Notes under the pieces: model-generated
What the model saw: the letters and a program-made list of their open reading frames with translations, nothing else
Database searches by the model: none
What the model was told of the DNA's origin: nothing
Shown: positions 62,075 to 62,426 of the stretch, piece by piece
Layout: each line of letters starts with the position of its first letter
Numbering within the stretch: the first letter of the stretch is position 1
Position numbers and translations under genes: made by a program
NCBI RefSeq assembly: GCF_044324785.1
Contig: NZ_CP172127.1
Reading direction: 5' to 3' (one strand)
DNA from: Escherichia coli
GTDB lineage: Bacteria > Pseudomonadota > Gammaproteobacteria > Enterobacterales > Enterobacteriaceae
DNA length: 64,000 nucleotides

Positions 62075-62426
62075 TCATCTCTGGCGCTGCCAGATAGCGT
62101 TTTCGTTCTTACAGTCAATGCGCACCCGATACTGAATATCGGCTTTCTTCCCCCGGGCGGTGAGATGCACTGTGACTAAATTATCACCTTTACTTACCAG
62201 CTCACGAAGATTCACCCAGACAACAGGATGCTGCTGACTGAAGATCACCTAGTCATCTTTCCAGTGAAGCACCTGTTTCTGGAGATAGTCCCGTTTGACG
62301 CTGGCTGCAACAGCCGATGATTCCTGCCCTTCACATCGTGGAAAACTGACGGTTCTGTTTTTATCAGTAGCCAGTGATGATACACAAATACCGAAGGTGA
62401 GCAGAATTGAAGAGAGTGTTTTGTTT
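62075..62426 (-). pseudogene. degenerate small secreted-protein gene (start codon ATA, in-frame TAG)
   Basis: Minus-strand frame reads (ATA)NKTLSSILLTFGICVSSLATDKN...WKDD-TAG-VIFSQQHPVVWVNLREL...; absent from ORF track. Confidence 0.25.

Follow-up and report, generated by a model that had tools for sequence, protein, structure and literature searches.

The locus between sitD and a ROK-family regulator gene in the window (the whole stretch of 64,000 nucleotides of Escherichia coli DNA that was analysed) is almost certainly a remnant, no longer functional, of an accessory yebF paralogue carried on an island. The initial annotation had described a decaying frame for a small secreted protein on the minus strand, and such a frame exists, with a match of its repaired translation to the YebF family (Table 1; see below). 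Its placement held except for two details: the 5' end had been given as 62426, which is the last base of the first codon rather than the true start and gives an out-of-frame translation, and the in-frame stop had been put at 62248-62250 instead of 62251-62249. Against the earlier figure of about 115 codons, the exact count is 118 including the stop. Both lesions that had been noticed are real. The start codon is lost, with ATA where the allele of strain SCU-115 has ATG, and the TAG at codon 60 stands where all intact relatives carry CAG (Gln). This TAG is the sole internal stop of the frame, and each of the remaining five frames over the same 354 nt contains 5-10 stops. A TAA in frame at 62431-62429 lies directly 5' of the ATA, so that no upstream start is possible. 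The N-terminus reads MNK, followed by a hydrophobic core at residues 5-17 (Kyte-Doolittle 9-residue means of 1.6-2.2), then SLA and then T, and this region of the repaired protein aligns with the signal peptides of YebF-family proteins. As had been proposed from the letters of the window, the N-terminus resembles a signal peptide, with a putative cleavage site between SLA and T.

Table 1. Features of the pseudogene locus and their positions in the window
Feature	Position	Strand	Details	Basis
YebF-family pseudogene frame	62428..62075	minus	354 nt, 118 codons including TGA at 62077-62075	translation
Former start codon, now ATA (G>A at 62426)	62428-62426	minus	SCU-115 allele and every intact paralogue have ATG	
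Nonsense codon 60, TAG in frame (formerly CAG, Gln; C>T at 62251)	62251-62249	minus	CAG in intact paralogues	
Region formerly coding a Sec-type signal peptide (predicted), codons 1-20	62369..62428	minus	(M)NKTLSSILLTFGICVSSLA; putative cleavage site	hydropathy and family alignment
Residual GTG-started ORF	62075..62248	minus	57 aa, C-terminal fragment	ORF list
Promoter-like TTGTTA-16 nt-TACAAT	62482-62455	minus		consensus scan of the sequence
Degraded hairpin after the stop	62056-62035	minus	AGAGTATG-aacaaa-CGGACTCT	read from the sequence
Internally deleted IS2, both ends kept	61858..61943		86 bp	thousands of IS2-end matches, alignment to a full copy

For the assignment to a family we used a conceptual 117-aa protein in which both lesions were repaired by taking ATA as M and TAG as Q. 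Homologues of this translation are present and lie in the same frame. The repaired protein scores 89.8 bits against Pfam YebF PF13995 (cutoff 27, E=1.1e-25), covering profile positions 1-86 of 89, a match far beyond chance. It also matches PDB 2LQV, the NMR structure of E. coli YebF (b1847), over residues 22-116 with E=4e-25, and we take the fold as settled because of this sequence match to a solved structure. The codons for C32 and C106 are retained, and both columns are invariant across nine aligned family members. The window gene and YebF belong by sequence to the same fold family and to the same length class (117 and 118 aa, respectively), and both have the two invariant cysteines and an RG..D..Y.V..C motif in the alignment; the N-terminal signal peptide that they would also have in common is, for the window gene, a putative one. 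Canonical yebF has ~46% identity to the repaired protein over the mature domain and, unlike the inactivated window gene, which belongs to an accessory island, occupies a core locus.

The two NCBIfam YebF equivalogs separate these genes further. The repaired protein falls below the cutoff in both NF010224 (116.3 vs 147) and NF041240 (106.8 vs 110), whereas canonical YebF scores 205.6 and 156.4, respectively, and the intact island paralogues clear NF041240 (YebF_not_Cmi) only, with scores of 115-116. The scores below both cutoffs imply that the window gene is a paralogue and not an orthologue of yebF. An exhaustive HMMER pass over 1.84 billion representatives returned 32 clusters for the family at E<=0.001, so that the YebF family is small; in this pass the island paralogues form their own cluster, and the next nearest is that of canonical YebF, at ~48% identity. 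YebF is a small E. coli protein in wide use as a secretion carrier (PMC10233263), and the YebF fold recurs in the periplasmic domain (PF13995) of the colicin M immunity protein Cmi (PMC5277000). A Cmi-type immunity gene was set aside, however, since the N-terminus resembles a cleavable signal peptide and not an anchor, no Cmi chain was among the PDB matches of the repaired protein at E<=0.01, and no colicin M gene stood out among the annotated neighbors; its best NCBIfam models are YebF ones, including 'YebF_not_Cmi'.

The paralogue group is present in 51 of 5,426 complete E. coli genomes, as a pseudogene allele in 49 and at full length in 2. The best copy is 100% identical in DNA to that of the window in 26 genomes, with the same ATA and TAG. 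In LH50-c (1 genome, 99.7% DNA identity) these two lesions are joined by G81S, and in PKF4 and PKF11 (2 genomes, 98.9%) by a 4-bp deletion at codons 41-42. Another 20 genomes carry an SCU-115-type allele (95.2% by BLAST), a group in which the sequence was read in strain SCU-115 only and to which the other 19 were assigned by identity score and length. SCU-115 itself keeps the ATG, has the same codon-60 TAG, carries a 1-bp deletion at codon 24 and is 95.5% identical to the window allele in direct alignment with the gap column set aside. The genes of the 2 remaining genomes, named yebF by PGAP, are intact and have 88.1% and 81.5% DNA identity to the window allele.

The full-length 117-aa E. coli paralogues P0001-P0003 are 79-84% identical in amino acids to the repaired protein, and each of them starts with Met and encodes Gln by CAG at codon 60, a column that holds Q, R or K across the wider family. 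At the DNA level the intact island paralogues (P0002 and P0003, the latter of WP_045146775 type; 'protein YebF' in PGAP) are 81-88% identical to the window gene, with ATG and CAG at the positions of its ATA and TAG. Like the window gene, they sit in island settings rich in IS elements and integrases, either near the ato operon beside an integrase or ~2.8 kb upstream of another sitA. In a protein collection of 5.8 billion clusters, the closest intact protein to the window lineage is 84% identical, and an intact version of that lineage was not found. A metagenomic allele (P0004/L020; ENA ERZ27280467 k141_5893) is a mosaic with SCU-115-like sequence at both ends and a middle (~nt 165-300) like that of the intact locus L008. 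Its CAG at codon 60 comes from this middle tract, and it carries an A-run slip of its own, a frameshift at codons 22-24, so that this A-run is a recurrent lesion site. The mosaic implies that the paralogue lineages recombine, by recombination or gene conversion.

Searches of wider scope returned the following. A tblastn search of plasmid records gave no plasmid-borne copy, and its sole match was canonical yebF (46%) on records that are actually chromosomal. An exact-pattern scan of 100,044 GTDB species representatives gave no match to a degenerate 26-mer conserved in all four paralogue types. The gene query gave 87 matching places over 51 records, with several places in some genomes (e.g., GF60, 135 and 23CRST013), at most 5 in any one of them, and higher numbers in the larger genomes; canonical yebF or the other allele may account for part of the excess. 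Strain 135 has at least two pseudogene copies that are 100% identical to that of the window, and the unit made up of pseudogene, mini-IS2, AbgT and S6 peptidase seems either to have been duplicated or to lie on a repeated island. In E. coli PK-F-10122 (L014), an intact paralogue with 88% DNA identity (5001-5354) lies ~2.8 kb upstream of a second, truncated sit operon (8127-9041), with dolP-like, thioredoxin-domain and DoxX genes between them. This layout differs from that of the window, so that linkage of a YebF paralogue with sit genes occurs in two distinct island layouts.

The order of the lesions can be read from the alleles. The codon-60 TAG occurs in both pseudogene alleles read, those of the window and SCU-115, which implies that it is older than their split, whereas ATG>ATA polarises to the window lineage. 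Since the alleles that have the TAG in common have diverged at 4.5% of bases, the gene was not inactivated recently, and the earlier claim that it was has to be abandoned. The window and SCU-115 alleles are separated by 14 nonsynonymous and 2 synonymous differences (Nd=14, Sd=2; dN/dS 2.1), compared to a dN/dS of 0.15 for the intact pair L004/L009. The probability of at most 2 synonymous among 16 changes is 1.2e-5 at an omega of 0.15 and 0.25 at an omega of 1. Thus, the 14:2 ratio fits neutral drift and rejects the purifying selection of the intact copies. Moreover, the sister lineages bear additional and independent lesions, namely the 1-bp deletion in SCU-115, the 4-bp deletion in PKF4 and PKF11, and the A-run slip of the mosaic allele.

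The history that best explains these observations would start from an ancestor of ~117 aa with a Sec signal peptide and a ~97-residue domain of the YebF fold, held together by a single disulfide between Cys32 and Cys106. If it resembled YebF, whose release to the medium is reported to depend on OmpF/OmpC, this protein was probably exported to the periplasm and released from the cell; the term "secreted", as applied to an intact paralogue, follows from membership in the YebF family. The first lesion would have been the C>T change that turned Gln60 (CAG) into TAG, followed by neutral drift of the sequence. Later, the window lineage would have acquired ATG>ATA together with five further amino-acid changes that polarise to it, and the sister lineages would have gained frameshifts of their own. 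A rearrangement at the mini-IS2 would have placed the remnant beside sitD. No function is expected of the pseudogene now. In the 57-aa ORF that remains, the signal peptide and one of the two cysteines are missing. The remnant matters very little biologically, as a further accessory gene in decay on an IS-riddled island of E. coli. Nevertheless, its series of lesions, a common TAG and then the lineage-specific ATA, -1 and -4 changes, offers a convenient way to trace lineages of this island, and the intact paralogues might interest those who use YebF as a secretion carrier.

The initial annotation had also predicted that ORF finders would miss the gene, and this was correct for a mechanical search. 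The table-11 ORF tool scans ATG, GTG and TTG starts and excludes ATA, and its list breaks the frame into the 57-aa GTG-started piece and an off-frame 46-aa piece. The homology-based pipeline of NCBI, by contrast, already flags the pseudogene. PGAP labels identical DNA in other E. coli genomes as a pseudogene, 'YebF family protein', interrupted by an internal stop, and in CFSAN061770 the identical DNA is annotated as a 354-nt pseudogene of this name. RefSeq is inconsistent on this point, with a 57-aa CDS in some genomes and a 300- or 354-nt pseudogene of the same DNA in others; the fragment is a non-pseudo 'YebF family protein' CDS in SCU-115 (WP_001354053.1; L002 6036-6209) and in PKF11 (WP_000577803.1; L012 3177-3350). 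A search of the literature library found no paper on island-borne YebF paralogues or on the window pseudogene. We conclude that the pseudogene is real, ordinary and already annotated.

Homology to the locus of L008, the closer of the intact paralogues, extends from ~100 nt upstream to ~60 nt downstream of the gene, and takes in putative flanking signals. The consensus scan gave a second promoter-like match at 62501-62473 in addition to that in Table 1, and the alignment shows that the TTGTTA stretch is kept in the SCU-115 allele and at L008. The Shine-Dalgarno sequence is GGAGG in L008 vs GGGG in the window, where the G-rich stretch is a possible remnant of a ribosome-binding site. Because the promoter-like hexamers and the G-rich stretch survive, the pseudogene may still be transcribed. 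Downstream of the stop, the counterpart of the degraded hairpin in L008 is a perfect 8-bp stem (AGAGCCCG-aacgaa-CGGGCTCT), and in the window no T-run follows the hairpin. At gathering score, Rfam gave no family at this locus, and the looser E<1 added only two matches, both at chance level.

Activity of what is left of the gene can be imagined in two forms. The GTG at 62248, right after the TAG, opens a frame of 57 codons that might yield a functional, truncated C-terminal domain of YebF, and PGAP calls this ORF a non-pseudo CDS in SCU-115 and PKF11. We give this possibility only a slight chance: the product would lack a signal peptide and keep just one of the two cysteines that are invariant in the family, this DNA is marked by PGAP as a pseudogene in other genomes, and the segment shows 6 nonsynonymous vs 1 synonymous changes between the window and SCU-115 alleles, so that no purifying selection is visible. 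It is barely credible that full-length expression persists through initiation at the ATA combined with read-through or suppression of the TAG. The promoter-like sites are retained and the frame is otherwise open, but ATA is not among the ATG, GTG and TTG starts and is a very poor initiator in E. coli, and two independent rescue events would be needed. Moreover, the substitutions since the TAG are neutral in pattern, and the frameshifts of the sister lineages are beyond rescue by any read-through. Each lesion is a single base change, as would be expected if ATA and TAG were sequencing or assembly errors in an intact gene, an explanation that retains virtually no probability. It is refuted by the 100% identity of the 354 nt, with both lesions, across 26 complete E. 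coli genomes that were assembled independently, and the TAG is also present in the second allele, which is 95.5% identical.

We likewise consider it highly improbable that the locus now serves in a new role, as a non-coding RNA or as a regulatory element connected with sit or with the ROK regulator. The pseudogene follows the ROK gene in the same orientation at a distance of 94 bp and could be co-transcribed with it, and promoter-like sites are present. However, the upstream neighbor differs between genomes, being either the ROK gene or an IS3 element, only the window shows the linkage to sit, and the divergence of the sequence looks neutral. This reading was rejected on the Rfam result given above, with no family at gathering score and only chance-level matches at E<1. 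Reading the locus as a dead yebF paralogue leaves room for two further proposals: that the island YebF paralogues are an uncharacterised accessory subfamily of secreted proteins, and that the junction of sitD, mini-IS2 and pseudogene is a genuine structural variant. Taken jointly, these are unlikely. The island paralogues, full-length in so few of the complete genomes and 46% identical to YebF, are usually accompanied by an AbgT transporter and an S6 autotransporter protease, and their repeated independent disabling by nonsense mutation, loss of the start codon and three or more different indels might point to selection in favor of losing the gene rather than to mere neglect. The junction variant may have arisen by recombination between two copies of the 86-bp mini-IS2 and be absent from all complete E. 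coli genomes.

The pseudogene had been described as lying downstream of sitD, and physically it does, in convergent orientation and 483 bp from the sitD stop (61591, plus strand); on its other side is the ROK regulator gene (62523-63635, minus strand). An IS2 remnant lies between it and sitD, however, and the two are joined in 0 of 5,426 complete E. coli genomes, none of which covers even 80% of 61592-62522. The same facts, together with the convergent orientation, led us to reject an operon link with sitABCD, and the adjacency of the pseudogene to sitD is incidental. In matching strains, the order at the sit locus is sitD, IS2 remnant, truncated IS1 and iutA/iuc. The order at the pseudogene locus, which is a different one, is ROK regulator (or IS3 element), pseudogene, IS2 remnant, AbgT transporter and S6 autotransporter peptidase.

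The mini-IS2 marks the boundary between the sitABCD segment and the segment with the yebF pseudogene. The full element has 1,331 bp, of which ~49 bp at one end and 22 bp at the opposite end are retained; the mini-IS2 occurs in one copy in the window and has no 5-bp target duplication. E. coli strains carry the mini-element at two loci, with ~25 bp of common flank on each side, so that the repeat unit corresponds to ~61835-61965, and strains with both copies have them in direct or inverted orientation. The copy in the window is a hybrid, of the sit-locus type to ~61925 and of the pseudogene-locus type from ~61926, and an exact-pattern scan of 100,044 GTDB species representatives gave no match to this hybrid junction sequence. 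Recombination between two mini-IS2 copies, by inversion or duplication, would create the junction of sitD and pseudogene. We conclude that this junction is either a recombination product or an assembly chimera at the mini-IS2 repeat.

The surrounding island is riddled with IS elements and contains iha, a group II intron and sitABCD, and the window from ~27 kb to 61965 has 100% reported identity to several avian and human strains. A 54-aa minus-strand ORF at 61720-61884 starts inside the IS2 remnant, and a similar 55-aa 'hypothetical protein' lies between the pseudogene and AbgT in PKF11 (L012 3746-3913); the ORF in the window is probably spurious and made by the IS2 remnant. Elsewhere in the window, Rfam gave at gathering score the Hfq-binding sRNA isrN (138 bits, 38057-38199) and a group II intron domain (51666-51752) beside a reverse transcriptase of the ltrA type. 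Rfam also gave the sRNA STnc490 (129 bits, 56660-56781), which overlaps the region of a minus-strand ORF (56740-57627) upstream of sitA. Positions 1-20800 hold a Mu-like transposable prophage with genes for a DUF935 portal-like protein, an ExeA/MuB-like protein, a transposase with an integrase catalytic domain and a head morphogenesis protein, and these 20.8 kb have 100% reported identity to prophages of several human E. coli isolates.
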